From Acaryochloris thomasi RCC1774 (GTDB lineage Bacteria > Cyanobacteriota > Cyanobacteriia > Thermosynechococcales > Thermosynechococcaceae): a stretch of DNA of 32,000 bases. The stretch is from contig NZ_PQWO01000006.1 of the NCBI RefSeq assembly GCF_003231495.1, forward strand, positions 257,387-289,386, written 5' to 3'. Shown in pieces: positions 10,418 through 30,878 of the stretch. How positions within the stretch are numbered: position 1 is the first letter of the stretch; every line of letters begins with the position of its first letter. The notes below the pieces were generated by a model. That model had not been told where the DNA came from. It saw nothing but the letters and a program-made list of their open reading frames with translations, and searched no databases. A program made the translations under genes and the position numbers.

Positions 10418-10456
10418 AGGTGTTCCTATTCCAATTGGACCTTATTTTTCACAGAT

Positions 10457-10864: not shown

Positions 10865-10931
10865 GAATTGAGTTCTCCTATCGTTCTACCTGTCTTGCTT
10901 ACAATGAATCTTGATCGGACAAACCAGCAAA

Positions 10932-11589: not shown

Positions 11590-11728
11590 AGAGAAGATGT
11601 AGCGGTTTAAGTCGCAATGATGGGGCGTACCGATTGATACTTTGTTTTTCGGTTGGATGTTTCCTATTTGATGTTCTGTATAAAAAATGCAGAAAATACA
11701 GGTGCGTTTATTCCCTCACTGCTGCACC

Positions 11729-12346: not shown

Positions 12347-12480
12347 TATTGATGCTCCAGTTAGTATTTTTTCTGTACATTGCTCACGCGTCTTGCCAAA
12401 GACCCAAACGGAGCTGACTGCTATCTACAAGCAAGCGAGTGTTTTCACCGGGGTGACCTCCTTCTCACAACGATGAGAAT

Positions 12481-13494: not shown

Positions 13495-13599
13495 GGTTGT
13501 TTCTCCTAGAAAAATCAAGGGCTAGAGTTCGATAATGCAGCAAATCGGCTTGTTTTGAGGCGTCGTTCAACACTTTTCTCTAAAATTTCTGCATAAGTC

Positions 13600-14325: not shown

Positions 14326-14400
14326 TAAAACTCCTAAATGTAGAAATTGAAGGTTTTCGTCTGCCCAGCCGCTGCAGCGCTTCCAGATCCGTCATTAGGG

Positions 14401-15417: not shown

Positions 15418-15459
15418 TCTCATCTCTCCATTCTGCAAACTAGGCTGTAACTGAAATTC

Positions 15460-15546
15460 GATATTGACTTACTATCGGTAGCCTAATGACCGCCTCATTA
15501 ATTAGTCAAATGCATACTACGGATATATGGAATCGATAGCATGAAT
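15460..15546. promoter_or_regulatory. Orphan LysR-type divergent control region with a LysR start-codon stub
   Basis: 87 nt align with 22063..22144: GATATTGAC, CTATCGGTAG, CTAATGACC, GTCAAATG and ATCGAT...ATGAAT are shared. It contains the dyad TAATGA-n5-TCATTA. After ATGAAT (15541) the reading frame has no LysR similarity. Confidence 0.6.
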
Positions 15547-15668
15547 ATTGGGTTCACATCTGTGACTGTGCTGCTAGCCTCCAGCACGATTTCTCGGGTC
15601 ACGGGAAAATCTCGGTATGGAATCCTTTTGATATTTCTTGATTTATCCACGAAGTTGATAGGTGCAGT

Positions 15669-16292
15669 CTATTGTTCACAAGTTAGCAGTCGGGCGAGGA
15701 AGTAGTTTGTCATCTTCGAGCCGTAGGGCGAGTTCCACCAGCCAGATGGATGGCAGCCCAAGGGGGCTTCGAGGGAAAAGTCGAGTTCATGACACTTGCG
15801 CCAGCGATCGCCTTCCCGCCAGCCCAGGCGATCGCCCCATTTCTCAACGAGGGTTTGATCTTGAGCGATTGTGGTATCGAGCGTTCCCCCCAGCTCCTGA
15901 TAGATGCGGAGCTGAACGCTGAACCCGAACCGTTCATCGCTATAGGTTTGCCAAAGCTGATCGAGTACCTGTAGCTGACCGCAAGGAAATTTGCGGATGT
16001 CGTCGGGCCTTAGATCCTCTAGGTTTGCCACGCCTTCGATATCTTGAATCAAGCGAATGGTTTCCTGATCTGCCTCATACCAACGATGGTCAGCAAGATA
16101 ATCTTGAAGCTGTTCATAGCGATATAAATCGCCAACGGCTAGGAGTCTCTGCTCAATTTTGGTGACTTGCTTTGATAGCTGCTGCAGCGGTGAAACTTGC
16201 GTCTTGACTTCCTCTATCTGGGTCATGAGCTCCTGAAGCTGCGCTTGAATAGCAGCGAGCTGTTCACCTAGGGCGTTATCGGCATTACTCAT
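15669..16292 (-). CDS. GUN4-domain protein with N-terminal coiled coil
   Basis: The C-terminal part 'FPCGQLQVLDQLWQTYSDERFGFSVQLRIYQELGG...WGDRLGWREG...LEAPLGCHPSGWW' fits the GUN4 domain pattern. The N-terminal 50 aa are heptad-like (LQELMTQIEEVKTQV). Confidence 0.7.
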   Translation of the reverse strand: MSNADNALGEQLAAIQAQLQELMTQIEEVKTQVSPLQQLSKQVTKIEQRLLAVGDLYRYEQLQDYLADHRWYEADQETIRLIQDIEGVANLEDLRPDDIRKFPCGQLQVLDQLWQTYSDERFGFSVQLRIYQELGGTLDTTIAQDQTLVEKWGDRLGWREGDRWRKCHELDFSLEAPLGCHPSGWWNSPYGSKMTNYFLARLLTCEQ

Positions 16293-16723
16293 TGGCTGCT
16301 CCTTTGATCTCGTTGGTGGTGGAAGGTACGTGAGAGGTGTATTTGAAGAATCGGAGCAATCAGCGTTGTTACCACTACCATAATCAAAACAGCCGCATCC
16401 AGAGACTCAGACAAAACGCCGGTAGAGGCTCCCAAACCAGCAACGATAAGACCGACTTTTCCTCGAAGGGTCATGCTAGTGCCTATTGCGAATCGATTGA
16501 TGGGTTTATCACCGAAGGGCGCGTAGCCTGCGATTGCTTTCACTGCGATCGCACCCCCCCCGGCGATCACTAGCCCCTCTCGGTTCTCAGGCATCAGCGG
16601 ATTCAGAACGCGCAGGTTGACGCTGGCTCCAATCGTGACAAAAAAGATCGTTGTATATATGTATACGAAGGGCTGTCTTAAGTGCATCATCGACGGAACG
16701 ATCTGCCAAAAAGTTATGGGCAT
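16289..16723 (-). pseudogene. Cation:proton antiporter (CPA-type) C-terminal fragment
   Basis: The 144 aa match only the last TM segments of Na+/K+:H+ exchangers ('IFFVTIGASVNLRVL', 'GTSMTLRGKVGLIVAGLG', 'VVVTTLIAPIL'). About 250 N-terminal residues are absent. The stop overlaps the GUN4 ATG (ATGA). Confidence 0.5.
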
Positions 16724-16725
16724 GC

Positions 16726-16917
16726 CTACTGTTTCTCTTCTTTTTGCTGCTGAACTGCCTCATACCCAACGCCAATCACAAAGCCTAAGGTTGAGCCGAC
16801 GAGAATAATGGTGGCTCTGCGAGATTTAGTCTGACTCACATGATCGATCACGACACCCAGCGCTGCACCCACAAAAGCGGTTACTATTCCTGAAAAAATC
16901 AGCATTCTAAAATTCAT
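16726..16917 (-). CDS. Small two-TM membrane protein (hypothetical)
   Basis: 63 aa with two hydrophobic segments (MLIFSGIVTAFVGAALGVVI, ATIILVGSTLGFVIGVGY). It sits 2 nt upstream of the next ORF. No clear SD. Confidence 0.45.
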   Translation of the reverse strand: MNFRMLIFSGIVTAFVGAALGVVIDHVSQTKSRRATIILVGSTLGFVIGVGYEAVQQQKEEKQ

Positions 16918-16930
16918 TGTTCATCTTGTT

Positions 16931-17023
16931 TCAGACAAAAACAAAAGAGCAGAACAGCAAGATCGCGGTGACAAAAAATAAACCGTTATTCATCCAATCA
17001 TTGAAATTCCAGTCTTTGAACAT
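16931..17023 (-). CDS. 30-aa single-TM peptide downstream of the RND pump (not in the supplied ORF track)
   Basis: ATG at 17023 lies 10 nt after GGAGAA. Translation is MFKDWNFNDWMNNGLFFVTAILLFCSFVFV-stop. It begins 51 nt after the RND stop codon, on the same strand. Confidence 0.35.
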   Translation of the reverse strand: MFKDWNFNDWMNNGLFFVTAILLFCSFVFV

Positions 17024-17074
17024 CTAGAGCTTTCTCCAATCGTTATCTCATCACAGTAATCCGATGACGCAATC

Positions 17075-20000
17075 TCACTTATCCGGGGGACTCTTGACCA
17101 TGTTGGCTTCAGCTTCCTCCTCACTCATCGAAGGTCCAAGAGCCTCCATCTTTCTTCCTTTCCTGCCGCCACCCTTCAAGAAAGATTCCTCCAGATTCTT
17201 GATGACAATATAGAGAATCGGAACAAAGATCAGACTCAACGTCGTTGCCACCAACATGCCGCCAAAGACTGCTGTCCCCAGCGACCAGCGGCTTACTGCA
17301 CCCGCACCCGACGCAATCACCAACGGGATAAAGCCTGCCAGTGTCGAAATCGCCGTCATCAAAATAGCCCGAAATCGCTGCTCAGAAGCAAAGATAGCGG
17401 CTTGCTTGATTTTCATCCCCAAATCACGATTTTGATTCGCAAATTCCACAATCAAGATCGCATTCTTACTCGCCATCCCAATCAGCATCACTAAGCCAAC
17501 CTGAGCATAGATATTGTTGTTCAGCACCGGCCAAACGCCACCCGCCTGAAAAACCGTTGCTCTCAGCCAAATTCCGCCCAGCGCCCCCAAAATTGCTAGT
17601 GGAACAGAAAGCATAATGATCAAGGGATCGATATAGCTTTCGTACTGTGCTGCTAAGACCAAGAAAACCATCACAAAGCTCAGACCGAACACAATTGGAG
17701 CTGCGCCACCTGCTGACTTCTCTTCCGCTGCAGTATTGGTCCATTCATAGTCGAAACCGGGCTGCAGGGTGGCTTCAGCAACTTCTTCCATTGCTTGAAT
17801 GATCTGCCCTGAGCTATATCCAGGCGCAGGGGCTACGTTGACCTTGATCGCTGGATAGACGTTGTAGTTGCTGACAATGGGTGGGTAAGAAATTTGTTTC
17901 GCATTGATGAGATTGCTGAGCTGAATGAGTTCACCGTCACGCGATCGCACATACAAACTATTAATATCCTCCGGGTTCTGGCGCTGCTCCGCCTCTGCTT
18001 GGGCATAGACGCGATAGAGCCTGCCGTCGAGGACGAACTGATTGACAAAATTAGAGCCAAGGTAGGTCTGCAGCGTAGTTAAAATCTCGCTCACGTCTAC
18101 GTTTTGAGCATTGGCGCGATCGCGATCAATATCCGCCTCTAGCATCGGGCTGTCGAAGGTAAAGGTGGTCAGCGCCATTGCAACCTCGGGTCGCTCATTC
18201 GCGGCGGCAATCACTTTCTGGGTATTGTCGATTAGGGCATCCATCCCTCTACCCTGGCGGTCTTCAATAAAAATTTCTGACCCCCCAAAGCTGCTTAGAC
18301 CATCGACCGGCGGAGCGTTAACGGCAATCACTCTTCCCCCGTCAATACCTTGCTGAAATTGCTGATTGGCCTTCTGAAGCACCCCGAAAATAGAGCTAGA
18401 ATCTTTGGGGCGCTGCGCCCAGGGATAGAGCTTGACGAACATAATGCCTTTATTGCTGTTCAGGCCATCGAAAGAGAAGCCTGACAGCCCCATCGTATGC
18501 TCCACCTCCTCGTAATCCATCATCATCTGAGCGGCTTGCTCCGTAATTCGGTGGGTATAGTTCAACGAAACTCCGGGCGGTGCTTCGATAATCACAAAGA
18601 AATAGCCCTGGTCTTCTTCGGGCACAAATCCTTGAGGCAGCGTCTGATAGGCCCACCCCGTCAGAACTAAACCCGCCACAAAGATAGCGATCACTACCGG
18701 CTTGATCCGAGTCAAGAACTCAATGAGCTGACGATAGCGTCCTTTCAACCCATCAAAGCTGCGATTAAATCGAGGGAATAACCAGCCCAAAGGCCCCTTC
18801 ACCGGCTCCGCTCGCTGCAGGAAAACCCCAGACATTGAGGGCGAAAAGGTGAGGGCATTAAACGTTGAAAAAACAACGGCAAATGCAATGGTCAGCGCGA
18901 ACTGTTTATACACAATCCCCGTCGTACCAGGGAAGAACGTTACTGGAATGAAGACGGCCATTAACACAACAGACGTAGAAATTACAGCTCCCACCAGCTC
19001 ATCCATTGCATCTAAAGCAGCCTGCTGAGGACTCATACCCTGAGACAGCTTGCCTGAGACGGCTTCGACAATGACAATCCCGTCATCTACCACTAGACCC
19101 GTGGCGAGAATACAGGCAAACAGCGTTAACTGATTGAGCGTAAAACCCAAGACCTGCAGCGCAATCATCGTCCCAATCAAAGCTACCGGGATCGCCACGG
19201 CGGGGATCAAAGTCGCTCGCCAATCCTGCAGAAAGATAAAGATGATTAAGATCACCAACCCAATGGCTTGGGCAAGGGTCACGAGCAGATCCTTTAGAGA
19301 CGCATTGATAAACAGCGTGTTATCGTGAGCGACTTCAGCCTTCAAGCCTCGCGGAAAGTCGGCCTCTAACTCCGCCATTTTGGCCTTCACCAGTTCGGCT
19401 GTATTGAGTGCGTTGGTTCCCGGAAGTTGATAGATGACGAGTCCCACCGCTGGGTTCTCTGCATCAAATACGGCCTGAGAAAAATAGCTTTCTACGCCTA
19501 ACTCTGCGCGACCCACATCACTAACCTTAATCAGCGTGCCGTTCTCTCCAGCTTGAACCACTAAACTTTCGGCTTCCTCGACCGTCGTGAAGCGTCCTAA
19601 CACCCTTAGCGGCAGCTCAAATTGCTGTTGCGGAACGGTGGGCTGACGACCCACGCCCCCTGCCCCTACTTCAAAGTTTTGGCTTTGAACCGCATTCACC
19701 ACATCGGCTGCCGTTAGCCCCCGAGCTGCCAGCTTGTCAGGGTCGAGCCAGAGGCGCATCGAATAGGTCGCGGCACCAAAAGCCCTGAGACTGCCCACTC
19801 CTTCAATTCGCCTCAGTTCATTCCAGAGATAGCGATCGAGATAGTTATAGAGAAAATCAGGTTCGTAGTAGTAGTCACCCGCTTTATCTTTCTCGGAGTA
19901 AAGGGAATAAACCAGCGTGACGCTCGGAGACTCCTTCTCTGTGGTTATCCCCGTCGCTGTAACGCTTGGGGGCAGATTGGACTGTGCCTGCGCTACCCGG

Positions 20001-20338
20001 TTTTGCACGAGCACCTGTGCTGTATTCGTATCTTTTTCAACCGGGAAAGAGACGTTGATCGTGGCGCTGCCGGTGTTGTCGGTGCTGGAGCTGATCCACT
20101 TGATGTCCTCGGTGCCGTTGATCTCGCGTTCGAGGACGGTCGTTACATTCTCAACGGCAGTTTTGGCATCTGCCCCCACGTAATTTGCCCGGACAGCAAT
20201 CTGCTTTGGTGCAATCTGAGGCAGTTTATCCAGTGGCAGCAAGGCCATACAAATCAGACCCAGCAGCACAATCACGATAGTGCAGACGGTTGTTAAAACG
20301 GGACGCTTGATGAAGGGAGTGGAAACAGAAAACAGCAT
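17075..20338 (-). CDS. RND efflux transporter permease (AcrB/HAE1-like)
   Basis: 1087 aa. Typical RND N-terminus 'FIKRPVLTTVCTIVIVLLG', two large periplasmic loops and 12-TM architecture. Confidence 0.95.
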   Translation of the reverse strand: MLFSVSTPFIKRPVLTTVCTIVIVLLGLICMALLPLDKLPQIAPKQIAVRANYVGADAKTAVENVTTVLEREINGTEDIKWISSSTDNTGSATINVSFPVEKDTNTAQVLVQNRVAQAQSNLPPSVTATGITTEKESPSVTLVYSLYSEKDKAGDYYYEPDFLYNYLDRYLWNELRRIEGVGSLRAFGAATYSMRLWLDPDKLAARGLTAADVVNAVQSQNFEVGAGGVGRQPTVPQQQFELPLRVLGRFTTVEEAESLVVQAGENGTLIKVSDVGRAELGVESYFSQAVFDAENPAVGLVIYQLPGTNALNTAELVKAKMAELEADFPRGLKAEVAHDNTLFINASLKDLLVTLAQAIGLVILIIFIFLQDWRATLIPAVAIPVALIGTMIALQVLGFTLNQLTLFACILATGLVVDDGIVIVEAVSGKLSQGMSPQQAALDAMDELVGAVISTSVVLMAVFIPVTFFPGTTGIVYKQFALTIAFAVVFSTFNALTFSPSMSGVFLQRAEPVKGPLGWLFPRFNRSFDGLKGRYRQLIEFLTRIKPVVIAIFVAGLVLTGWAYQTLPQGFVPEEDQGYFFVIIEAPPGVSLNYTHRITEQAAQMMMDYEEVEHTMGLSGFSFDGLNSNKGIMFVKLYPWAQRPKDSSSIFGVLQKANQQFQQGIDGGRVIAVNAPPVDGLSSFGGSEIFIEDRQGRGMDALIDNTQKVIAAANERPEVAMALTTFTFDSPMLEADIDRDRANAQNVDVSEILTTLQTYLGSNFVNQFVLDGRLYRVYAQAEAEQRQNPEDINSLYVRSRDGELIQLSNLINAKQISYPPIVSNYNVYPAIKVNVAPAPGYSSGQIIQAMEEVAEATLQPGFDYEWTNTAAEEKSAGGAAPIVFGLSFVMVFLVLAAQYESYIDPLIIMLSVPLAILGALGGIWLRATVFQAGGVWPVLNNNIYAQVGLVMLIGMASKNAILIVEFANQNRDLGMKIKQAAIFASEQRFRAILMTAISTLAGFIPLVIASGAGAVSRWSLGTAVFGGMLVATTLSLIFVPILYIVIKNLEESFLKGGGRKGRKMEALGPSMSEEEAEANMVKSPPDK

Positions 20339-20382
20339 TAGTGTCTAGAGATTAGGTTGCCGGAATTTAAAAGCCGTAATCG

Positions 20383-21750
20383 TCAGTTACTCTGCTGCTG
20401 GCCCTCTCCTGCTTCTAGACTTCCGACCGTCTCTGCTTCCGTGATCGGTGTGCTGTCTTTGAGACTCAAAATATTGGAGGTGGCGATGCGATCTCCGACT
20501 TGGACGCCAGAGAGAATCTGATAGGCTTGATTTTGGATTTTGCCCAGCTTGATGGGCTGCTGCTGAGCCACTAGAGTGGCCTCGCCTGCCTCAGATTTCT
20601 GTTCTTTCGCGACGTAAACAAAGCTCTGCCCACCTAGAGTAGAAATGGCTGTTGTGGGGACGAGGATTCCTGGATTTTGATCCCAGATCACTCGAACGCG
20701 GACATACTCTCTATCTCGCAACCGACTCTGACTGGGGAACGTTACCTTCGCCAAGATTGATTGGGCATTCTGCTGCACCAGCGGAGCAACGTACGAAATT
20801 GTTCCTTTAATGCTCGATGTCTCACCATCTTCAATTGTTTCTGTCGCCAACCCTCGCTGGAGCCGATCGCGATTCTCAATCGGGATATTAATATTCAGCT
20901 CAAGATCTTGGTTGTTGGTAAGCGTCGTCAGTTGCTCACCAATGCTTACGTAGTCTCCGACTTTCTTCTCATCAAAGCTACCAATCACCCCATCAATCGG
21001 AGCGCTAATTGTATTAAAAGCAAGATTTTGACCGACTGACTTCAATTCAGCCGCTGAGCGAGAAACTGCCGCCTTTTGACTGGCAATACTTGCCCTGGCC
21101 TGATCGACTTGTCTATCAGAAGCCTCAAGGGATTCGACGGCTGCATTGAGAGCTTCTTGGCGAGAATTGCGCTGAGCTATATTTGTCTTGAGATCGCGGT
21201 TGGCATCATCTAAGTTCTGCTGAGGCTGCACGCCCTCCTTAACCAGCATTTTGGCGCGCCCCATATTGATCTGTGCTAATTCGACTTCGGCACCCAAATT
21301 TTCTAAATCGGCCTTCGCACTTTTTACCTGAGCAGCCGCCACTGCACGGTTTGCCTGGGCTGTTCTGAGTTCAGCTAGGGCTTGACCTAACGTAGCCCGC
21401 TCAACGTTGACGCTCTGATTGGCTGCATTGACATTTTCCTGGGCTTGGGTTGGTTCTAGTCGAACGATTTTGTCGCCCTTGCGCACTCTCTGTCCCTGCC
21501 TGACAAAAATTTCTATGATTCTGCCGTCGATTCGAGGAGCGAGGCTAACGCGATCTCGTGCCGTTGAAGTCCCGATAAATTCGCTGCTGTTAACGTGTGT
21601 ATCAGATTCAATGGTTGCTAGCTTGACTGCGATGGCTTTTGGCTGCTGCGCCTCTTTTTTGCCACCGCATCCTCCGAGTATTGAAGAGGTAGATAAAGCA
21701 ATAACAGACAAAAGTAGCGAGAAGCTTTTTAATTTGTGTTCAGCAATCAT
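20383..21750 (-). CDS. RND efflux periplasmic adaptor (membrane fusion protein), lipoprotein
   Basis: Lipobox 'ILGGC' after a signal sequence. Long alpha-hairpin region flanked by barrel-sandwich motifs ('RIDGRIIEIFVRQGQRVRKGDKIVRLE'). Confidence 0.9.
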   Translation of the reverse strand: MIAEHKLKSFSLLLSVIALSTSSILGGCGGKKEAQQPKAIAVKLATIESDTHVNSSEFIGTSTARDRVSLAPRIDGRIIEIFVRQGQRVRKGDKIVRLEPTQAQENVNAANQSVNVERATLGQALAELRTAQANRAVAAAQVKSAKADLENLGAEVELAQINMGRAKMLVKEGVQPQQNLDDANRDLKTNIAQRNSRQEALNAAVESLEASDRQVDQARASIASQKAAVSRSAAELKSVGQNLAFNTISAPIDGVIGSFDEKKVGDYVSIGEQLTTLTNNQDLELNINIPIENRDRLQRGLATETIEDGETSSIKGTISYVAPLVQQNAQSILAKVTFPSQSRLRDREYVRVRVIWDQNPGILVPTTAISTLGGQSFVYVAKEQKSEAGEATLVAQQQPIKLGKIQNQAYQILSGVQVGDRIATSNILSLKDSTPITEAETVGSLEAGEGQQQSN

Positions 21751-22138: not shown

Positions 22139-23092
22139 ATGAATCTAATTCCAGAAGAGTCTTCTGTGACGATTGACTACGCCAGCCTCCGCCAGCTCGA
22201 CTTAAATCTGCTGCTTGCCTTTGACATTCTCGTTGAAGAGGCGAGTGTGACTCAGGCTGCTGAGAAGCTGAACATGAGCCAGTCAGCAATGAGCCATGCA
22301 CTTAAGCGTTTGCGGGCAGTGCTTGGCGATCCGATTTTGATTCGGACTTCACAGCGACAGATGGAAGTGACCCCCTATGCCCGTGAGATCAGTCCTCAGG
22401 TGCGACAGGTGCTCACAGATATTCAGGAAACGCTGCTGGCGAAAGATGTCTTCGACCCTGCCACTGCTCAAGAGGATTTTAGAATTGCCACTAATGACTA
22501 CGTTGAGGCGACCCTCAGCGCCCATTTGCTCCCAGAATTAATGCAGCAAGCGCCTGAAATTCAGGTGCGAATCGCGGGCATGGATAAGGATACAGCCTTA
22601 GCTTCTCTTGATAACAACAGCATCGATTTGTTCATCGGAGCGGGCTTAGATCTGAAGCGCTGGCATATTCGTGAAGCACTTTATCCGGAAGAGTTTGTCT
22701 GTGTGGTGCAGAGCGACTGTCCGTTGACTGAACTATCGCTAGAGGAGTATGCATCGAGATCTCATATCCTAGTTTCACTTCAGGATGACTTTCGAGGCGT
22801 TGGCGATCTAATCCTGGAACAGCAGCAGCAGTCTCGCCAGGTTGTTTGGTCAACGCCTCACTTTATGGCTGTGCCCTTTATGTTGGCCAACTCAGACTGC
22901 GTCGCCCTCTTGCCCAAGCGAATGGCGGAGCGATGTGCTAGGGAGATGGGGCTAAAGCTACTGCCGCCGCCCATCGACGTGACGGGATTCACGGTGTCTA
23001 TGGTCTGGCATCAGCGTCACAATAATCGTCCCCAGCACCAATGGCTCAGAAGTCAGCTTATAGCTGCCGCACAGCGTCTATCCGATCTCTAA
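22139..23092 (+). CDS. LysR family transcriptional regulator
   Basis: N-terminal HTH 'LDLNLLLAFDILVEEASVTQAAEKLNMSQSAMSHALKRLR' plus a C-terminal substrate-binding domain. Confidence 0.9.
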   Translation: MNLIPEESSVTIDYASLRQLDLNLLLAFDILVEEASVTQAAEKLNMSQSAMSHALKRLRAVLGDPILIRTSQRQMEVTPYAREISPQVRQVLTDIQETLLAKDVFDPATAQEDFRIATNDYVEATLSAHLLPELMQQAPEIQVRIAGMDKDTALASLDNNSIDLFIGAGLDLKRWHIREALYPEEFVCVVQSDCPLTELSLEEYASRSHILVSLQDDFRGVGDLILEQQQQSRQVVWSTPHFMAVPFMLANSDCVALLPKRMAERCAREMGLKLLPPPIDVTGFTVSMVWHQRHNNRPQHQWLRSQLIAAAQRLSDL

Positions 23093-23160: not shown

Positions 23161-23222
23161 AAACAATCTGACTATTGCGACAGTAGTTTTAAAGGTCGGC
23201 AATCTTCTTGCAGAGGTACTTT

Positions 23223-24404
23223 ATGACTCGACAATGGCTGCAGCCACCCCGCCTTCGAGTGGGAGAAGGTGAAGAAGGTCAACCTCGCCATGCAACTTGG
23301 TTGGAGCTGTTTTACGATCTGGTTTTTGTGGTCGCGGTCTCGCAGTTAGCTCATAAACTCAGCGATGATGTTTCGCTGCCAGGATTTCTCAGCTTTGCGG
23401 TACTGTTTATACCCGTGTGGTGGGCCTGGATTGGAACGACTTTTTATGCCAATCGCTTTGATACGGACGATATTGTCCGGCGGGTGATCATGGGGCTGCA
23501 GATGCTTGCGATCGCATCTCTAGCCGTAAACGTCCATCACGGTTTAGGCGAAAGTTCCATTGGCTTTGCGCTCGCCTATGCCGCTTCGCGAGTGATGTTG
23601 ATTTTCGAATATCTCTGGGCTGGGTGGCATATTCCCAAAGCGCGTCCCCTCACCAATCGCTACGCTTTTGGGTTTAGCATTGGCGCACTGCTGTGGCTCA
23701 TTTCAGTCTTTGTCCCGCTCCCGTTTCGTCTGGGTCTATGGGCCGTGGGCTTAGCGATCGATTTTGCGACACCGCTGAGTGCGGGGAAATACACCCTCCA
23801 GATCCCACCCCATCCTGAGCATCTTCCTGAGCGGTTTGGCTTGTTCACAATCATTGTGTTGGGGGAAGCGATTATTGCTGTGGTCAATGGCATCTCAGAT
23901 ATGGACTGGAGCAGCTTGAGCATCGGGGCTGCTGTTCTAGGGTTCACCACCGCTTTCTCACTTTGGTGGATCTATTTTGAGAATGTCGAAGGTTCTGCCC
24001 TAGAAAAGGCCCGCACCTCTGGACGTATCTTGGGCCTCCAGGTTTGGCTCTATATCCACCTTCCTTTCGTGATTGGGCTGGCGGCAACTGGCGTTGGTGT
24101 CGAACACATTATCGCCAGTGCCAGTACTGCAGCTCTACCCACGCCTGAACGCTGGCTGATTTGTGGATCGGTGGCGATGTGCTATTTCTCTCTAGCCGTG
24201 CTGCATCGTACGGGGGTAATCTTTTTCTGTAAGGCAAGAACTCGGCATCGGTTGTGGGCTGTGGGGGTGGTTTTAGGAGTTGCGATCGCAGGCACCCAGC
24301 TTCTTCCCATCACCGTGATTGCCCTAATCGCAGCCGTCGGAATTGTGCAAGTCAGCTTAGACCTATATCAGGGTAAACCAGAACCCTCTAAAGCTGGCGT
24401 GTAA
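23223..24404 (+). CDS. ltrA: Low temperature requirement protein A (LtrA) family membrane protein
   Basis: 'ATWLELFYDLVFVVAVSQL' is the LtrA N-terminal signature, followed by about 10 TM segments. The start was chosen at ATG 23223; the listed ORF begins at TTG 23208. Confidence 0.8.
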   Translation: MTRQWLQPPRLRVGEGEEGQPRHATWLELFYDLVFVVAVSQLAHKLSDDVSLPGFLSFAVLFIPVWWAWIGTTFYANRFDTDDIVRRVIMGLQMLAIASLAVNVHHGLGESSIGFALAYAASRVMLIFEYLWAGWHIPKARPLTNRYAFGFSIGALLWLISVFVPLPFRLGLWAVGLAIDFATPLSAGKYTLQIPPHPEHLPERFGLFTIIVLGEAIIAVVNGISDMDWSSLSIGAAVLGFTTAFSLWWIYFENVEGSALEKARTSGRILGLQVWLYIHLPFVIGLAATGVGVEHIIASASTAALPTPERWLICGSVAMCYFSLAVLHRTGVIFFCKARTRHRLWAVGVVLGVAIAGTQLLPITVIALIAAVGIVQVSLDLYQGKPEPSKAGV

Positions 24405-24483: not shown

Positions 24484-25173
24484 TTGCAAACTTCATTTGA
24501 TCAGCTCGTCGTCGTCGTTGCCAGTCGAGGCATTGGTGCCAAAGTCACTGAGCATCTTGTCTCTCGTACACGTCAATTGACTGCAGTTTCTCGTTCTCCA
24601 GCTCCGTTCGGGCGTTGGGTTGAAGCTGATGTCAGCCAGGAGAAAGGTATCGAAGCAATTAAGAAGGCGGTAGCAGATACTGCACTGAATGGATTACTTT
24701 ATATGGGCGGTACGTGGGAGACCCAAGCATTTACTTCCGAGTATGCTTTCGAGCAGTGTTCTGACGAGGATATAGCTCAGGTATTGTCTGTTAACTTCAT
24801 AACACCCATTCTCCTTGTAAAATCCTTGTTACTGTCTCTGCGAAAATCACCAAACCCTAAAGTCATATTGATGGGTGCTCTGTCAGGGCTAGATAATTTT
24901 CCCGCAAGAGAAGTGGCAAATTCAGCGTCAAAGTTCGGTTTGCGTGGCGTTGTTCACGCGCTACGAGACGATAGAATTGCGGTCACAGTAATGAATCCTG
25001 GAAATATTGCAGCTCCTGAAGTTCTATCTGACCTGAGCGAAGCCGGAGAATCGGACGATCATGCGACACCGCTTTTTGATCTACTGAGCATTATTGACTG
25101 CGTTCTTTCTCTGTTTCGATCAACCTGTACTAAAGAAATTCAAGTTCCAGCAATGAATGCGAGAGGAGCCTAA
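24484..25173 (+). CDS. Atypical SDR-fold protein (degenerate cofactor and catalytic motifs)
   Basis: SDR-like layout, but TGxxxGxG reads 'VVASRGIG', NNAG reads 'YMGG', and YxxxK reads 'NSASK' (Tyr replaced by Asn). TTG start. The stop lies 5 nt before the next ORF. Confidence 0.65.
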   Translation: MQTSFDQLVVVVASRGIGAKVTEHLVSRTRQLTAVSRSPAPFGRWVEADVSQEKGIEAIKKAVADTALNGLLYMGGTWETQAFTSEYAFEQCSDEDIAQVLSVNFITPILLVKSLLLSLRKSPNPKVILMGALSGLDNFPAREVANSASKFGLRGVVHALRDDRIAVTVMNPGNIAAPEVLSDLSEAGESDDHATPLFDLLSIIDCVLSLFRSTCTKEIQVPAMNARGA

Positions 25174-25178
25174 TCTGA

Positions 25179-26846
25179 ATGGTGGCAAACATGACCTCAA
25201 AACCAGCAATTATCGTTGTTGATGACGATCCCGCCGTGCTGCAGGCGATCGCTCGCGATCTTCGCAAACAGTATGGCGATCGCTTTCGCATTACTCGGGC
25301 TGACTCTGGCGCAAAGGCTTTAGATGTGGTGCAGCAACTCAAGCTACGCGGCGATACAGTCGCGCTCTTCCTGGTTGACCAACGGATGCCTGAGATGAAC
25401 GGTGTTGAGTTCTTAGAGCAGGCCAGCGAGATTTTTCCGGCGGCGAAGCGGGCGTTACTCACTGCCTATGCTGACACGAATGCCGCCATCGACTCCATTA
25501 ACAAAGCGCAGCTCGATTACTATTTACTCAAGCCCTGGGATCCTCCTGAGGAAAAGCTCTACCCGGTTTTGGACGATCTGATTCGTGATTGGCAGGCAAC
25601 ATTTAAGCCCGAGTTTAAAGGCGTAAAAGTGATTAGCGATCGCTGGTCTCCTAATTCCCACGCCCTGAGAGATTTTTTAGCCCGTAATCAGATTCCCTAT
25701 CGCTGGCTCGACATTGAAAATAATCAAGAAGCTCAGCAGCTCGTCACCTATGCTGGCGAGAACGATAACCCTTGTTTGCCGCTAGTGCTGCTTCCCGATG
25801 GCGAAAAATTAGTGAAGCCGACCACAGCTCAGCTTGCTCAGCAGGTTGGGATGCAAACCGAGGCCGAAAGCCCCTTTTACGATCTCGTGATTATTGGCGG
25901 CGGTCCTGCCGGATTAGCCGCAGCAGTCTATGGCGCATCAGAGGGCTTGCGAACCGTGATGATTGAGCGAGAAGCGCCGGGTGGACAGGCGGGGACCAGC
26001 TCTCGGATTGAAAACTACTTGGGTTTTCCGGTGGGACTAAGCGGAGCTGATTTGGCGCGGCGAGCCGTGACCCAGGCCAAGCGCTTTGGTGTGGAAATCC
26101 TTAACCCTCAGGAGGCCAAGTCCATCCGCCTGGAGGAGAACTACCGAATTATCACGTTGTCAGACGGCAGCGAGATTAGCTGTCATGCTCTGATTCTTTC
26201 GATGGGTGTGGCTTGGCGGCGGTTGACTGTTCCGGGCGTTGAGCAATTTACTGGGGCTGGTGTCTATTACGGCGCGGCTCAAACGGAGGCCGCAGCCTGC
26301 AAGGATGAAGAGGTCTATGTAGTGGGCGGGGCAAACTCAGCCGGGCAGGCCGCGATGTATTTTTCTAAGTACGCCCGCAAGGTGAGGATGCTGGTGCGGG
26401 GCGAGTCTTTGACGAAAAGTATGTCTCAATATCTGATCGACCAGATTGACAGCACAGATAATATCGAGGTGTGGCCGTTCCACAGCGTGATCGAAGCCCA
26501 GGGGAACGATAAGTTAGAAACTTTATTGGTTAAAGATTCTCAGACTGGCGAGGTGAAGACGCTGGCGACAAATTCTCTGTTTATTTTCATTGGTGCGACC
26601 CCCAGCACTGAATGGCTAGCAGATTTAGTGGAGCGAGATCAGCGAGGTTTTGTTTGTACAGGCCCAGATATACCAGAGGAGAGAGCTTGGCCCTTGGAAC
26701 GCGATCGCTTCTTACTGGAGACCAACATACCAGGTATTTTTGCGGTGGGTGACGTTCGCCACGGCTCTGTGAAGCGAGTGGCTTCAGGTGTGGGTGAAGG
26801 ATCTATCTGTGTACAGTTTGTACATCGACATTTAGCAAATGTTTGA
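25179..26846 (+). CDS. Fused response regulator receiver / Grx-like domain / thioredoxin-reductase-like flavoprotein
   Basis: REC domain: DDD15-17, D67 in 'LFLVDQRMP', T95, K118 in 'LLKPW'. Middle domain ~148-224 is a Grx/NrdH-like fold. C-terminal part has 'IIGGGPAGLAAA' (FAD), 'VVGGANSAGQAA' (NAD(P)H) and 'GIFAVGDV'. Confidence 0.9.
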   Translation: MVANMTSKPAIIVVDDDPAVLQAIARDLRKQYGDRFRITRADSGAKALDVVQQLKLRGDTVALFLVDQRMPEMNGVEFLEQASEIFPAAKRALLTAYADTNAAIDSINKAQLDYYLLKPWDPPEEKLYPVLDDLIRDWQATFKPEFKGVKVISDRWSPNSHALRDFLARNQIPYRWLDIENNQEAQQLVTYAGENDNPCLPLVLLPDGEKLVKPTTAQLAQQVGMQTEAESPFYDLVIIGGGPAGLAAAVYGASEGLRTVMIEREAPGGQAGTSSRIENYLGFPVGLSGADLARRAVTQAKRFGVEILNPQEAKSIRLEENYRIITLSDGSEISCHALILSMGVAWRRLTVPGVEQFTGAGVYYGAAQTEAAACKDEEVYVVGGANSAGQAAMYFSKYARKVRMLVRGESLTKSMSQYLIDQIDSTDNIEVWPFHSVIEAQGNDKLETLLVKDSQTGEVKTLATNSLFIFIGATPSTEWLADLVERDQRGFVCTGPDIPEERAWPLERDRFLLETNIPGIFAVGDVRHGSVKRVASGVGEGSICVQFVHRHLANV

Positions 26847-27794: not shown

Positions 27795-28304
27795 CTAATT
27801 GGGCTGTCCCAAATAATCAATCTTGCCGATTTCAACGCCACAATGTCTGAGAATGTCGTACGCCGTTGTCACATGGAAGTAGACATTGGGCATCACAAAA
27901 GAGAGAAGATAGGGTAGGCCAGGAAATTTATAGACATCATCTTTGACGGGAAGCGTAATGATGTTCTCCTCTGACCCATCGATTTGCTCCGGTGCAAACG
28001 TTTCTAAGTACTCTATGGTTGCCCTTAAACGGGCGATCAGTTCTGGGAATGTTGACTCATTGTCTTCCATCGCGGGCGCTTCCGTCCCGGCGAGCCTTGC
28101 AGCTCCCCTCCTTGAGACGTCTGAGGCAATCTGAATTTGCTTGGCAAGGGGGAACATGTCTGGAAAGAGGCGAGCATTGATCAGGATGCTGGCGTCGATT
28201 CCTTTACTTTCTGCATGGGCAGCCCCTTTCTCAAGAATCCCGATTAGGTTATTGAGGGCTCGAACCATAGGAGGGATCGAGGCTTGGTACATCGAAATTG
28301 TCAT
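27795..28304 (-). CDS. DUF1993 domain protein (DinB-like helical bundle)
   Basis: 169 aa. 'MYQASIPPMVRALNNLIGILEKGAAHAESKGID...ARLFPDMFPLAKQIQIASD' matches the DUF1993 pattern as I remember it. Confidence 0.8.
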   Translation of the reverse strand: MTISMYQASIPPMVRALNNLIGILEKGAAHAESKGIDASILINARLFPDMFPLAKQIQIASDVSRRGAARLAGTEAPAMEDNESTFPELIARLRATIEYLETFAPEQIDGSEENIITLPVKDDVYKFPGLPYLLSFVMPNVYFHVTTAYDILRHCGVEIGKIDYLGQPN

Positions 28305-28353
28305 GGTGTCGCTGTCTCCGTGGCTGAAATGAGGTGTGCAGTGATCTTAAAAC

Positions 28354-29328
28354 TTAAGTTCCTCGCTGGTGGGGAGCTAGCAAGTCGAGGTCAGGACCAC
28401 TCGGAACGACTTGGGTCGGATTGATCGTGCTATGACTTTGGTAATAGTGCCGTTTAATGTGTATAAAATTGACCGTCTCGGCAATACCAGGTATTTGATA
28501 CAGATCGCGGACGTAGCCCCACAGGTTGGGATAATCCACAATCCGTCGGATATTGCATTTGAAGTGGCCGACGTAGACCGGATCAAAGCGGATCAGAGTC
28601 GTGAACAGTCGCCAATCTGCTTCTGTAAGCTGTTCGCCTGTTAGATAGTGCCGGTGGGCCAGTCGTTCGTTTAGCCAGTCGAGGGTTTCGAAAAGGGGCT
28701 GCAGAGCTTCTTCATAGGCATCTTGAGTGGTGGCAAACCCGCATTTGTATACGCCATTGTTGACGGTGTTGTAGATGCGATCGTTGAGGCTATCGATCTC
28801 GGCCCGCAGTTCTGAAGGATAGTAGTCTCCGGGCTTGGCTCCTGCTGAATCAAAGGCGCTGTTAAACATGCGGATGATTTCAGACGATTCGTTATTAACA
28901 ATGGTTTGGGTTTGTTTGTCCCACAAGATCGGGACCGTGACTCGCCCCGTGTAGTTGGGGTTGGCGTGAGTGTAAATTTCATGGGCAAATTTGGCGTTGA
29001 AGAGGGGGTCGGCAATGACCCCTTCACCGGCTTCAAAGGTCCAGCCATGCTCACCCATGAACCAGTGAACCACTGAGACGGGGATGCTCTCTTCTAAGCC
29101 CTTGAGCAACCGAAAGATCAGGGTTCGGTGCGCCCAAGGACAGGCGTAGGAGACATAAAGGTGGTAACGCCCCGATTCGGCCTTGAAGCCACCGCTGCCG
29201 GTGGGACCAGGTGCGCCATCGGCAGTAATCCAGTTGCGGAACTGGGCATCTTTGCGCACGAAGCGTCCGCCGGTTTCAGAGGTGTCATACCACTTATCTT
29301 GCCAAATGCCATCCACTAAAAGTCCCAT
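28354..29328 (-). CDS. Xi-class glutathione transferase / glutathionyl-hydroquinone reductase (YqjG/ECM4 family)
   Basis: 'GRYHLYVSYACPWAHRTLI' carries the CPWA catalytic motif. 324 aa, with the family-typical N-terminal 'GRFVR...FRNWIT'. Confidence 0.9.
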   Translation of the reverse strand: MGLLVDGIWQDKWYDTSETGGRFVRKDAQFRNWITADGAPGPTGSGGFKAESGRYHLYVSYACPWAHRTLIFRLLKGLEESIPVSVVHWFMGEHGWTFEAGEGVIADPLFNAKFAHEIYTHANPNYTGRVTVPILWDKQTQTIVNNESSEIIRMFNSAFDSAGAKPGDYYPSELRAEIDSLNDRIYNTVNNGVYKCGFATTQDAYEEALQPLFETLDWLNERLAHRHYLTGEQLTEADWRLFTTLIRFDPVYVGHFKCNIRRIVDYPNLWGYVRDLYQIPGIAETVNFIHIKRHYYQSHSTINPTQVVPSGPDLDLLAPHQRGT

Positions 29329-29471: not shown

Positions 29472-30878
29472 ATGCTTTGTTCTACAGCTCTGCTGCAGAT
29501 GGAACCGTTCCAAGCTTTGCCTCCCGAGCGGCTAGATTGGATTTGCGATCGCACCCAACACATTCACCTTACTGCAGGCGAAGTTTTAGTCCGTGAAGAC
29601 GAACCCGCCAAAGGCTTTTTTATTCAACTGAGCGGCCAGATTACCGTTAGCCGACGCAGCAACGGCACTGACATGCCCGTCGGTCGTCATCAAAGCCCGT
29701 CGTTTTTTGGCGAAATTCAGGTTCTCACTGAAGATGTGGTGCCAGTGACTCTAACGGCTGATTGCAACACAGATCTCTATCGACTCGACTGTGCTGACTT
29801 TCTAGAGGTGCTGCATAGCTGCCGCGAGTTTGAAAAACATATTTTCCGCACCGTAGAGCAACGACTGCGCGGGCTAGAGTCGTTCATCCAAACTCGAGAG
29901 AAGATGGCTGCGCTGGGGACGCTTTCGGCTGGGCTGGCCCACGAACTTAATAATCCTGCGGCGGCATTAGTGCGGGTCTTGAAAGACGTGAAACCCGCTA
30001 TTCTTGAACTGCAGCGCATGAACCTCGTATATGGCCAGCATCAGGTCGATGATGATCATACAGAGCAGTGGATTGAATTGCGCGACCGGGGCTTTGATGC
30101 GATCGCAAACCCCAAAAACGACCCTCTTGCCCAAGGCGACCTCGAAGACGCCCTCACCGATTGGCTAGAAGACTACGGCGTCGAAGAAGCCTGGAAACTA
30201 GTTGAACCCTTAGCTGCCGGAGGTGTTCAGCCTGAGGCTTTGAATCAACTCGTGGACCGCTGGCGTGACGATGCCACCGAACTACGGGATATGGGGCTGC
30301 GATGGCTAGCACTGTCCTTTGATGTGATGGGAATGATCACGAATGGCCTGGATGGAGCGGAGCGCATTTCCATCCTTGTACAGTCAATGAAGTCTTATTC
30401 ATACATGGATAGAGCTGCCCAACAGCAGATTAATATTCATGACGGCATCGAAGATACGCTGCGCTTATTTGCCTTCAAGCTCAAGCATGGCATTAAAGTT
30501 GAACGTCGCTACGATCTAGAACTGCCAGAGGTAATGGCCTTTGGAAGTGAGCTAAATCAAGTGTGGACGAACTTGATCGACAATGCCATCGACGCCCTCA
30601 GCGAAGGAACGCCAGATGGAGCCGCACCGCAAATTATCATTCGAACTTGCCACAAAAGCAGTCACCTGCGCGTTGAAATCGAAGACAACGGCCCCGGCAT
30701 TCCGGCAGACGTCAAAAATCGTATCCTGGAACCTTTCTTTACCACGAAGTCTATGGGTAAAGGCTCGGGCCTCGGTCTAGATGTCGTGCGGCGGATTATC
30801 GAAAATCGCCACAGCGGTAGCCTGATGGTGGAGTCGAGACCAGGACGGACCTGCTTTGCCGTTTCGTTACCGATGTAA
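29472..30878 (+). CDS. Soluble sensor histidine kinase with an N-terminal CAP/cNMP-binding-like domain
   Basis: CAP_ED-like beta-roll ('GFFIQLSGQITVS...FFGEIQVL'). H-box 'LSAGLAHELNNPAAA', N-box 'WTNLIDNAIDA', G1 'DNGPGIP', F 'FFTTK', G2 'GSGLGL'. No TM segments. The start was chosen at ATG 29472; the listed ORF begins at 29373 (TTG). Confidence 0.9.
   Translation: MLCSTALLQMEPFQALPPERLDWICDRTQHIHLTAGEVLVREDEPAKGFFIQLSGQITVSRRSNGTDMPVGRHQSPSFFGEIQVLTEDVVPVTLTADCNTDLYRLDCADFLEVLHSCREFEKHIFRTVEQRLRGLESFIQTREKMAALGTLSAGLAHELNNPAAALVRVLKDVKPAILELQRMNLVYGQHQVDDDHTEQWIELRDRGFDAIANPKNDPLAQGDLEDALTDWLEDYGVEEAWKLVEPLAAGGVQPEALNQLVDRWRDDATELRDMGLRWLALSFDVMGMITNGLDGAERISILVQSMKSYSYMDRAAQQQINIHDGIEDTLRLFAFKLKHGIKVERRYDLELPEVMAFGSELNQVWTNLIDNAIDALSEGTPDGAAPQIIIRTCHKSSHLRVEIEDNGPGIPADVKNRILEPFFTTKSMGKGSGLGLDVVRRIIENRHSGSLMVESRPGRTCFAVSLPM

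Follow-up and report, generated by a model that had tools for sequence, protein, structure and literature searches.

A receiver-bearing flavoprotein of Acaryochloris thomasi with a thioredoxin reductase fold but no catalytic cysteines is probably a signal-gated NAD(P)H enzyme

We analysed a window of 32,000 nucleotides of Acaryochloris thomasi RCC1774, and all positions are those of this window. The list of open reading frames and their translation contained the two genes described earlier, both on the forward strand: a 229-residue SDR-family protein (24484 to 25173; Pfam adh_short, 1.8e-12) and a response-regulator/flavoprotein fusion of 555 residues (25179 to 26846). Pfam and NCBIfam divide the fusion protein into a receiver (REC) domain (residues 9-126, 25203 to 25556; Response_reg, 2.3e-15), a glutaredoxin/mycoredoxin-like Trx-fold domain that lacks the active-site cysteines (residues 148-224, 25620 to 25850; TIGR02200, the mycoredoxin model, 5.7e-8 over residues 150-223) and a FAD/NAD(P)H module similar to low-Mr thioredoxin reductase (TrxR; residues 232-555, 25872 to 26843; Pyr_redox_2, 1.1e-35; TIGR01292, 4.2e-67), and these assignments are far beyond chance. 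The AlphaFold model (pLDDT 92.7, pTM 0.86) adopts the FR, or NAD(P)H-to-flavin, arrangement. The A. thomasi RCC1774 database entries named 'Thioredoxin reductase' and 'response regulator' are 100% identical to the 555-residue protein, although the ATG at 25191 (Met5) may be the true start, giving 551 residues, since NCBI also lists a 551-residue version and most homologues have 550. The soluble histidine kinase encoded 2.6 kb further downstream on that strand (29472 to 30878) is probably the cognate partner of the fusion protein and carries a cNMP/CAP-type domain (about 29565 to 29816; cNMP_binding, 5.4e-14), an H-box, AHELNNP, with its His at 29940 to 29942, and a HATPase_c domain (30549 to 30872; 1.4e-23). 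The mechanical call of this frame begins at TTG 29373; homologues begin at the Met at 29472, which we infer from the alignment to be the start.

Translation bore out the complete receiver of the original prediction, with D15-D16-D17, the phospho-acceptor Asp67 (25377 to 25379), T95 and K118, and thus the acidic pocket, the phospho-acceptor Asp and the Thr/Lys switch residues of two-component REC domains are all present. D15, D16, D67, T95 and K118 do not vary among 55 sequences from nine phyla, and the REC domain is 63% identical to that of homologues from other phyla, being conserved as much as the FAD domain. The order of a REC followed by a Pfam pyridine-nucleotide-disulphide-oxidoreductase domain fits the 'TrxB-type' response regulator class of P2CS/P2RP.

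The second domain had been described as a glutaredoxin/NrdH layout in which S157-P-N-S160 replaces both cysteines, and the translation and an alignment with M. tuberculosis mycoredoxin-1 (2LQO, E 0.0016) both agree with this description. In that alignment the W-S-P-N-S of W156-S-P-N-S-H161 (25644 to 25661) falls on W-C-G-Y-C, and neither a CxxC nor a CxxS of glutaredoxin, NrdH or mycoredoxin was found at the N-terminus of helix 1 of this domain. Residues 149-222 of the AlphaFold model form a beta-alpha-beta-alpha-beta-beta-alpha Trx fold whose helix 1 has SPNS at its N-terminal end, and a cis-Pro loop, for which P201, conserved in at least 90%, is the candidate cis-Pro. The two serines are themselves conserved in close relatives, S157 in 91% and S160 in 82%.

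In its C-terminal part the protein is a flavoprotein of dimer-type TrxR fold, with the FAD site and most of the NAD(P)H site retained. The fusion protein is 30% identical to E. coli TrxB, its best PDB sequence matches by HMMER are TrxRs (1e-47), and Foldseek aligned the module of the AlphaFold model to FR-conformation TrxRs with TM-scores of 0.92-0.95. As predicted, the glycine motif of the FAD site is in place, and that of the NAD(P)H site is mostly so. The GxGxxG (GGGPAG, 25896 to 25913), GGQ and GD flavin contacts of low-Mr TrxR are all present, and across 116 relatives G240, G242, G245, G269-Q270 and G524-D525 do not vary; N279 is a further invariant FAD contact. At the NAD(P)H site the remnants are G383-G-A-N-S-A388 and V406-R407-G408, the latter in place of H-R-R as had been noted (26325 to 26402). 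The GxGxxA motif is largely kept, reading GGGNSA in most of the family and GGANSA in the fusion protein, where the Ala at the G385 position, shared by 78% of close relatives, might weaken NAD(P)H binding. Within the HRRxxxR 2'-phosphate site R407 is the one residue kept and does not vary in the family, nothing equivalent to R177 or R181 remains, a Ser aligning with R181, and the residues present look compatible with dual use of NADH and NADPH.

At the former active site the segment GVYYGAAQTEAAAC begins at residue 361, and Y363-Y-G-A-A-Q-T-E-A371 (26265 to 26291) stands in place of the redox-active C-A-T-C-D. HMMER against PDB TrxRs and BLASTP against E. coli TrxB agree in placing T369 on Cys138 and E370 on Asp139, so that Glu370 occupies the place of the TrxR acid catalyst, and the Cys135 position falls on G365 or A366. 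The protein contains no CxxC at all, its cysteines being at 199, 335, 374, 493 and 544 only, as stated beforehand. The profile and structure check of the missing cysteines that had been proposed gave the same answer three ways, by HMMER, BLASTP and the mycoredoxin-1 alignment. The Trx-docking motifs GR/KG and FF, as defined in PMC9025218, are also absent, with G359-A-G361 and A371-A-A373 instead in the E. coli TrxB alignment, and A360 is present in 82% of close relatives. The protein scores 226.1 bits against the TrxR equivalog TIGR01292, under its cut-off of 343.45 bits, as do cNMP-type and actinobacterial relatives.

These features are not peculiar to A. thomasi. About 116 diverse representatives share (Y/F)-Y-(G/A)-x-x-x-x-E-A at the former CxxC site, none of the 116 has a CxxC at the active-site position, and Y364, G365 and E370 are invariant in the 55 sequences from nine phyla. 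No Cys column is conserved in the family, column 374 holding a Cys in 36% and all others in under 12%, and a single-Cys mechanism, as in CoADR, Nox and YpdA, was rejected on this ground. The loss of the cysteines is thus a trait of the family and not decay. Because a new strictly conserved motif (Y364, E370) replaces the lost residues, we regard the family as functionally distinct and not as a set of broken folds. All domains are under constraint, with identities to the fusion protein of 83-88% across cyanobacterial genera and 50-68% in eight other phyla. Among 150 representatives the core of Grx-like and TrxR-like domains lies behind a REC in about 64 and behind a cNMP_binding domain in at least 32, joined by 7 of 10 at first left unclassified, and it was also found alone or, rarely, before EF-hands. 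There is no dedicated NCBIfam model for the family, and its members are usually annotated 'thioredoxin reductase' or 'thioredoxin reductase (NADPH)'.

The expected link to CAP-domain kinases was strongly confirmed by gene neighbourhoods. In about 38 of the 47 loci with enough flank, spanning nine phyla, a full-length homologue of the cNMP-domain kinase adjoins the fusion gene on the same strand, often overlapping it or within 130 bp, and the pairing also occurs in annotated actinobacterial and Deinococcus plasmids. All-against-all clustering of the open reading frames of 58 loci left the kinase as the sole conserved neighbour; the other neighbours reflect local synteny among close relatives, and no further substrate-related, partner, output-domain or regulator gene was conserved nearby in these loci. 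By eye, the cNMP domain of the kinase seems to have no canonical phosphate-binding Arg in the alignment. A c-di-GMP riboswitch beside the fusion gene was considered as part of the system and rejected, as 9 related loci showed no conservation of it.

Compared with known flavoproteins, the fusion protein shares with low-Mr TrxR (TrxB, TIGR01292) the fold (TM-score 0.95 to FR-state structures) and the FAD and NAD(P)H Rossmann motifs, but it has neither the CATC disulfide, nor GR/KG and FF, nor the HRR triad, and it carries the REC and Grx-like domains in addition. AhpF and NTRC likewise have a Trx-fold domain covalently attached to a TrxR-like reductase, and AhpF is the top Foldseek match over the whole chain of the model (E 1e-32); however, AhpF and NTRC keep a CxxC in both modules and work as a dithiol exchange shuttle, whereas the fusion protein lacks the cysteines at both sites, and it scores 178.9 bits against TIGR03140 (AhpF; cut-off 502.9 bits) with an N-terminal Trx fold that has no active-site Cys. 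The TrxR-type FNRs (YumC and Chlorobaculum FNR; 3LZW, 3AB1) also have the TrxR fold without a CxxC and pass NAD(P)H electrons to a non-thiol acceptor, which makes them a precedent for the chemistry that we propose. Their HMMER matches are at E 1e-12 to 1e-15, versus 1e-47 for TrxRs; the alignment with 3LZW breaks off at residue 308 of 332 and the query ends 9 residues further, with the TrxR-like last helix, so that nothing in it corresponds to the C-terminal extension of the FNRs. Membership of the TrxR-type FNRs was rejected on this sequence distance and the missing extension, and the loss of the CxxC in the fusion family is independent of theirs. The cyanobacterial DDOR and FFTR are TrxR-derived flavoproteins with altered cofactor or partner use (PMC9025218), but they keep the CxxC and lose the NADPH motif, the reverse of the fusion family, which keeps the NAD(P)H motif and has lost both the CxxC and Trx docking.

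Because a phosphorylation switch is fused to a TrxR-like flavoprotein without catalytic cysteines, the fusion protein is probably a signal-gated NAD(P)H enzyme and not a real thioredoxin reductase. The original prediction spoke of a phosphorylation-controlled non-thioredoxin flavoenzyme or a sensor, and what holds of it is a receiver-bearing TrxR-fold flavoprotein without canonical dithiol chemistry, in which the loss of cysteines is real, aligned and family-wide. Our leading reading, to which we give slightly better than even chances, is that of a kinase-gated NAD(P)H flavoenzyme that forms the enzymatic output of a two-component system and passes electrons to a non-disulfide acceptor. The kinase (29472 to 30878) would phosphorylate Asp67, hydride from NADH or NADPH would be transferred onto FAD, and the electrons would continue to a small molecule, a metal, a quinone, O2 or a redox protein, reached near the new Y-Y-G-A-A-x-T-E motif with Glu370 at the place of the acid/base Asp139 of TrxR. 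The Grx-like domain may be a relic of an AhpF/NTRC-style substrate domain that now links sensor and rotating NAD(P)H domain as a module for coupling or binding, and phosphorylation could gate catalysis through it by altering the FO/FR domain arrangement or the dimer packing. Elsewhere in bacteria a fused cNMP domain or EF-hands would control the same core directly, as a one-component version of the switch. We infer phosphotransfer and gating from the architecture alone.

The strongest alternative, though an unlikely one, is that the protein is a pseudo-enzyme or redox sensor, which turns over no substrate but reads the redox or nucleotide state by binding FAD and NAD(P)(H) and combines it with phosphorylation, and which might act as a phosphate sink, in feedback to the kinase or in protein-protein interaction. 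Several of the observations above are in line with this: both thiol-redox folds have lost their catalytic cysteines, the sole conserved partner is a kinase and no substrate gene accompanies it, the second Gly of GxGxxA is an Ala, and the REC is as constrained as the FAD domain. An inert domain is harder to reconcile with the invariant Tyr and Glu that have arisen at the former active site, with the output position of the flavoprotein behind the sensor in cNMP- and EF-hand-fused relatives, and with the lack of any other conserved output domain or regulator in the operon; moreover, a paralogue turns over NAD(P)H several times per second (PMC6544261).

This paralogue, ATII-TrxR, also bears on the earlier statement that the family has no assigned function, which stands for the REC type but has to be qualified for the cNMP-fused type. 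The purified enzyme contains about 1 FAD per subunit, has a Km of 5 uM for NADPH and 4 uM for NADH, and reduces DTNB directly, which is unusual for low-Mr TrxRs (PMC6544261). We could recognise it as a cNMP-type member through its R. solanacearum orthologue, which has no CxxC and whose cysteines, at 206, 223, 376 and 467, match the published numbering exactly; the copy on the C. metallidurans chromid is a different paralogue, WP_011519316.1 and not WP_011516654.1. ATII-TrxR and the group annotated 'cyclic nucleotide-binding domain-containing thioredoxin-disulfide reductase' (C. metallidurans, R. solanacearum, Paraburkholderia, Deinococcus) have the same Grx-like and CxxC-less TrxR-like core, with 38-44% identity over about 400-470 residues (E 6e-82 to 3e-102) and (Y/F)-Y-x-x-x-x-x-E-A in common with the fusion protein, but they carry an N-terminal cNMP sensor, a one-component design, where the fusion protein has the REC of a two-component system. 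Thioredoxin-dependent insulin reduction, with a kcat of 28 per s, has been reported for ATII-TrxR (PMC6544261), and this result from a paralogue of about 40% identity, the sole member with biochemistry, weighs against our main reading; if correct and general, it would point back to disulfide chemistry.

Nevertheless it appears to us improbable that the fusion protein truly reduces thioredoxin or other disulfides by way of non-canonical cysteines such as Cys374, as proposed for ATII-TrxR. Thioredoxin reduction had been named in advance as the observation that would tell against a non-thioredoxin role, and it is now on record for the paralogue together with the DTNB activity, the source annotations also read thioredoxin reductase, Cys374 aligns with Cys376 of ATII-TrxR and Ralstonia, and polysulfide induces S. 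coelicolor SCO7298 ('trxB3'), which is a response regulator of the TrxB type (PMC9952706). However, the cysteine pairs of ATII-TrxR, Cys206-Cys223 and Cys376-Cys467, come from a homology model and no mutants (PMC6544261), three of the four are absent here, where L205, Q222 and N465 are the equivalents of Cys206, Cys223 and Cys467, and none is conserved in the family, not even column 374. The complete lack of a CxxC, the G-A-G and A-A-A at the docking sites and the score under the TIGR01292 cut-off speak against it as well.

The architecture itself is already known, as censuses covering Streptomyces and thermophilic cyanobacteria list 'TrxB-type' response regulators (PMC9739842, PMC9953108). 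These, for example SCO7298 with its kinase SCO7297, have the same REC and Pyr_redox domains beside a kinase, and the actinobacterial loci that we examined have the same operon of response regulator and kinase; the class is defined solely by domain architecture, and SCO7298 was compared on that level only. What seems not to have been described before is the chemistry without cysteines and the pairing with the kinase: the searchable literature yielded no account of the CxxC loss, of the Grx-like domain or of a cNMP kinase as partner, and no functional study of a REC-type fusion, the Galperin response-regulator censuses being outside this coverage, and a survey of cyanobacterial TrxRs (PMC9025218) and a review of Deinococcus thiol reductases do not mention the family.

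We tentatively suggest, at somewhat less than even chances, that the Grx-like and TrxR-like core without catalytic cysteines represents a class of NAD(P)H flavoenzyme that has so far escaped recognition, gated by signals and working by non-thiol chemistry. If so, two-component, cyclic-nucleotide-type and Ca2+ signalling would share it as an enzymatic output across nine or more bacterial phyla, with phosphorylation or a ligand switching electron flow by controlling the rotation of a TrxR-type domain; it might act, for example, as a ferredoxin reductase, as a reductase of ROS or quinones, or as an electron sink under regulation. Response regulators studied so far nearly all act on transcription, c-di-GMP turnover or chemotaxis, and a widespread two-component system with a redox flavoenzyme as its only output would link signalling directly to metabolism. 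Thousands of database entries probably bear the name 'thioredoxin reductase' wrongly, and the tally of thioredoxin systems, that of cyanobacteria included, is inflated by it. The family also shows, as an experiment of nature, how the TrxR scaffold is re-used after loss of the dithiol, and its REC, cNMP and EF-hand variants offer three handles on the allosteric control of domain rotation in a flavoenzyme.

The SDR gene ends 5 nt upstream of the fusion gene (stop at 25173, ATG at 25179) and encodes N-S-A-S-K at residue 146, as described earlier, where three redox folds with altered catalytic residues had been grouped together; the alterations are real, but the new conserved motif contradicts degeneracy and the SDR does not belong to the group. 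Its homologues are absent from all 58 related loci, those of 92-94% identity included, and for this reason it was rejected as a partner and is, on neighbourhood data, an unrelated neighbour outside the conserved system. A functional redox pair or operon of SDR and fusion protein, to which the short gap, the shared strand and the deviation of both from textbook catalytic motifs had pointed, is most improbable and effectively refuted by these neighbourhoods and by the separate cyanobacterial family of the SDR with its invariant N-S-A-S-K. The Tyr-to-Asn change occurs in all 120 cyanobacterial homologues of that family, from which the A. thomasi SDR departs at V12, the first Gly of GxxxGxG in 118 of the 120, and in this organism the gene is perhaps co-transcribed with the fusion gene.

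The 555-residue fusion protein encoded at 25179-26846 (+) is 100% identical to an A. thomasi RCC1774 protein that is named 'Thioredoxin reductase' or 'response regulator' depending on the database. Pfam and NCBIfam place a receiver domain (REC) at residues 11-123, a weak but significant match to mycoredoxin (TIGR02200, 5.7e-8) at 150-223 and a thioredoxin reductase (TrxR)-like module at 234-551, which scores 226 bits with TIGR01292, under the curated cut-off of 343 bits. The start codon is ambiguous between 25179 and 25191, and NCBI holds both 555-aa and 551-aa versions; most homologues have 550 aa, which favours Met5 (25191), although the residue numbering used here is that of the original prediction and counts from 25179. 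The residues quoted in that prediction were all found in the window ORF, namely D15-17, D67, T95 and K118, S157-P-N-S160, GVYYGAAQTEAAAC from residue 361, VRG at 406-408 and cysteines only at 199, 335, 374, 493 and 544, with CxxC absent.

The alignment of the missing cysteines was checked by HMM comparison and structure prediction, and both thiol sites proved to be Cys-less at the CxxC position. HMMER against solved TrxRs and BLASTP against E. coli TrxB agreed on the key TrxR positions: Cys138 of TrxB corresponds to T369, the acid/base Asp139 to E370, Cys135 to G365 or A366, Arg130 of the G-R-G thioredoxin-docking motif to A360 and Phe141-Phe142 to A372-A373, and R407 alone is left of H175-R176-R177...R181. 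In the Grx-like segment, W-S-P-N-S lies on W-C-G-Y-C of M. tuberculosis mycoredoxin-1 (2LQO, E 0.0016). An AlphaFold2 model built with 55 diverse homologues as input was confident (pLDDT 92.7, pTM 0.86) and displays residues 149-222 as a classical beta-alpha-beta-alpha-beta-beta-alpha Trx fold with helix 1 beginning at SPNS. The top whole-chain match of the model is AhpF, and its TrxR-like part matches TrxRs in the flavin-reducing (FR) conformation (5MH4, 3CTY, 3R9U) with TM of 0.92-0.95 but flavin-oxidising (FO) structures with only ~0.63. TrxR-type ferredoxin-NADP+ reductases work on the same scaffold in the absence of a dithiol, but membership of the window protein in this group was rejected on HMMER comparison with solved structures.

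Judged from its homologues, the CxxC-less fusion protein is a member of a family and not the product of decay. In cyanobacteria, many genera (among them Leptolyngbya, Leptothoe, Adonisia, Calothrix, Synechococcus PCC 7336, Thalassoporum and, within Acaryochloris, A. marina) have homologues with 83-88% identity over the full length, and eight other phyla have full-length homologues with 50-68% identity, those listed being from Acidobacteriota, Chloroflexota, Bacteroidota, Actinomycetota, Deinococcota, Chlorobi-like bacteria, Alphaproteobacteria, Dormibacterota and Abditibacteriota. Every domain is under constraint (REC 63% and N-terminal FAD part 68% identity to other-phylum homologues), and the receiver residues, Y364, G365 and E370 are invariant in 55 full-length homologues. 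When residues 135-555 were used as query against 1.8 billion cluster representatives, the best 150 matches were all of the same type; across 116 of these the pattern at the CxxC site is (Y/F)-Y-(G/A)-x-x-x-x-E-A, and none of the 116 has a CxxC at the former TrxR active site. The NAD(P)H motif of the family is mostly GGGNSA and H-R-R is mostly replaced by V-R-G. There is no conserved Cys column in the family, column 374 being Cys in 36% and all others in <12%.

The proposed co-occurrence with a CAP-domain kinase was borne out by a neighbourhood comparison, in which ORFs were called in 58 related loci and compared to the window genes. In ~38 of the 47 loci with enough flanking sequence to show it, a full-length homologue of the cNMP-binding histidine kinase (29373/29472-30878, +) adjoins the fusion gene in the same orientation, frequently with a gap of 1-130 bp or an overlap. 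In most phyla the kinase gene is downstream, and in Bacteroidota and Chlorobi it precedes the fusion gene. The same pair is found on annotated plasmids of Streptomyces, Tsukamurella and Deinococcus, on which the 'ATP-binding protein' beside the fusion gene is cNMP_binding plus HATPase_c, and all-against-all clustering of the 58 loci revealed no other widely conserved neighbour. In the window, two minus-strand genes (27795-29328) separate the fusion gene from the kinase, coding for a DUF1993 protein (1.4e-61) and a Xi-class GST with the C-P-W-A-H-R motif characteristic of glutathionyl-hydroquinone reductases; L017, a locus whose fusion gene is 94% identical, has the DUF1993 insertion as well. 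The cNMP/CAP-type domain of the kinase (29565-29816, +) keeps the F-G-E element and, judged by eye, has no Arg where the canonical R-(S/T)-A phosphate-binding cassette would have one, in a region that is poorly conserved among kinase homologues; the kinase ligand may be other than cAMP or cGMP. On actinobacterial plasmids a third operon gene overlaps the kinase stop (L086 7696-8049; L087 7726-8076) and encodes a 116-aa UBP-type zinc-finger protein (zf-UBP 1.3e-14).

A REC precedes the Grx-like and TrxR-like core in ~64 of the 150 representatives and a cNMP-binding domain in at least 32; Pfam found cNMP_binding in a further 7 of 10 that an initial crude scan had left unclassified, and roughly ten proteins of 400-430 aa have the core without a preceding domain. 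In one case among the 150, the representative P0195 (707 aa), C-terminal EF-hand pairs follow the CxxC-less core (EF-hand_7 1.4e-17), which suggests a Ca2+-controlled version. The cNMP type is named 'cyclic nucleotide-binding domain-containing thioredoxin-disulfide reductase' by NCBI and 'cyclic nucleotide-regulated FAD-dependent pyridine nucleotide-disulphide oxidoreductase' by the C. metallidurans annotators. These proteins are 38-44% identical to the window protein core and share its motif, so the same flavoprotein would answer directly to a CAP-type domain in some bacteria and, in others, to a CAP-type kinase acting through REC.

In two-component censuses, REC with Pyr_redox is a 'TrxB' class with no function given, for example S. 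coelicolor SCO7298 with SCO7297 (PMC9739842, PMC9953108), and SCO7298 ('trxB3') is induced by polysulfide (PMC9952706). A survey of cyanobacterial thioredoxin reductases includes NTR, NTRC, FFTR and DDOR and not the fusion protein clade (PMC9025218). The cNMP-type paralogue ATII-TrxR (553 aa; Crp domain 13-146, TrxB 234-522) contains 1.87 FAD per dimer, has a Km of 5 uM for NADPH and 4 uM for NADH, reduces DTNB directly at 5.6 per s and supports Trx-coupled insulin reduction at 28 per s; CxxC is nowhere mentioned, redox centres at Cys206-Cys223 and Cys376-Cys467 were proposed from a homology model, and an R. solanacearum protein is given among its relatives (PMC6544261). The R. solanacearum megaplasmid orthologue has Cys at 206, 223, 376 and 467, plus 314, and reads G-V-S-Y-W-A-S-P-I-E-A-R-L-C, with CxxC absent. 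Since these cysteines match the ATII-TrxR numbering exactly, we take ATII-TrxR to be a member of the family. It has only Cys376 (Cys374) in common with the window protein, whereas positions 206, 223 and 467 are L205, Q222 and N465.

The fusion protein thus retains its receiver, FAD site and, largely, its NAD(P)H site, and its cNMP-domain kinase partner is conserved; it has lost the dithiol, thioredoxin docking and most 2'-phosphate ligands, the old active site now has an invariant new motif with Tyr and Glu, and a paralogue binds FAD and turns over NADH and NADPH. We lean towards a joint reading in which the kinase would phosphorylate Asp67 and thereby gate an NAD(P)H-to-FAD-to-acceptor reaction, while the Cys-less Grx-like domain, whose probable ancestor is a substrate domain of the AhpF/NTRC kind, would either link the sensor to the NAD(P)H domain as it rotates or serve to bind the acceptor. 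A role as a non-catalytic sensor of redox state or nucleotides would fit the cysteine losses and the lack of partner genes but is unlikely in view of the new conserved motif, the placement of the flavoprotein as output in one-component relatives and the turnover by the paralogue. That the protein is a true disulfide or thioredoxin reductase with odd cysteines, as the ATII-TrxR claims would favour, is improbable for a family that has no conserved cysteine and has lost the docking motifs, and a functional partnership with the SDR encoded directly upstream, refuted by the neighbourhood data, is scarcely credible.

This is not a new kind of protein, as the REC and Pyr_redox architecture is already in catalogues and an assay of one paralogue has been published. 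What appears to be undescribed in the searchable literature is that the family as a whole lacks any redox cysteine, that its replacement motif puts Glu on the Asp139 position, that the mycoredoxin-like domain is Cys-less, that a CAP-domain kinase is a near-obligate partner and that the core is modular, with REC, cNMP and EF-hand versions. By implication, a large family is mis-annotated as 'thioredoxin reductase'. If the protein is a signal-gated non-thiol oxidoreductase, it would add a new class of enzymatic output to two-component and cNMP-type signalling.

The 229-aa SDR ORF (24484-25173, +) ends 5 nt upstream of the fusion ORF and carries N-S-A-S-K at residue 146, as described, but its place in the system as a 'degenerate SDR' did not hold. 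Since no SDR homologue lies near the fusion gene in the 58 related loci and the SDR belongs to a separate ~233-aa cyanobacterial family in which N-S-A-S-K, with Asn for the catalytic Tyr, is invariant (120/120 sequences), it is an unrelated neighbour with a motif that is atypical family-wide. By this comparison it is a conserved atypical SDR and not a pseudogene; the window SDR alone has V12, at a position that in 118 of 120 homologues is taken by the first Gly of the GxxxGxG nucleotide motif.

A gene for LtrA (low temperature requirement A; 23208-24404, +; L084 10934-11248; L085 9911-11140) is found no more than a few kb from the fusion gene in A. thomasi, on Nostoc edaphicum plasmid pNe_3 and on Deinococcus aetherius pDAETH-1, but in none of the 58 genome loci; this proximity may be a weak association or chance. 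Window 2206-21750 looks like a stress/detoxification neighbourhood, with a KatG-like two-domain haem peroxidase (7272-9566), an AcrB/HlyD RND efflux pair (17075-21750), two Zn-dependent alcohol dehydrogenases, a glyoxalase/dioxygenase, an SMP-30 lactonase and an AraC regulator, and a LysR regulator lies at 22139-23092; the theme is local and not conserved around homologues. The ~950-bp gap from the fusion gene stop to the DUF1993 stop holds a c-di-GMP-I riboswitch aptamer (RF01051, 27529-27630, -; 38.9 bits, gathering score 35, window E 2.3e-4), which is absent from nine related cyanobacterial loci. Beyond the aptamer on the same strand are a terminator-like hairpin (27491-27469, -) and a T run, the minus strand downstream has only 50-59-aa ORFs, and read-through would transcribe the fusion gene in antisense from its 3' end.
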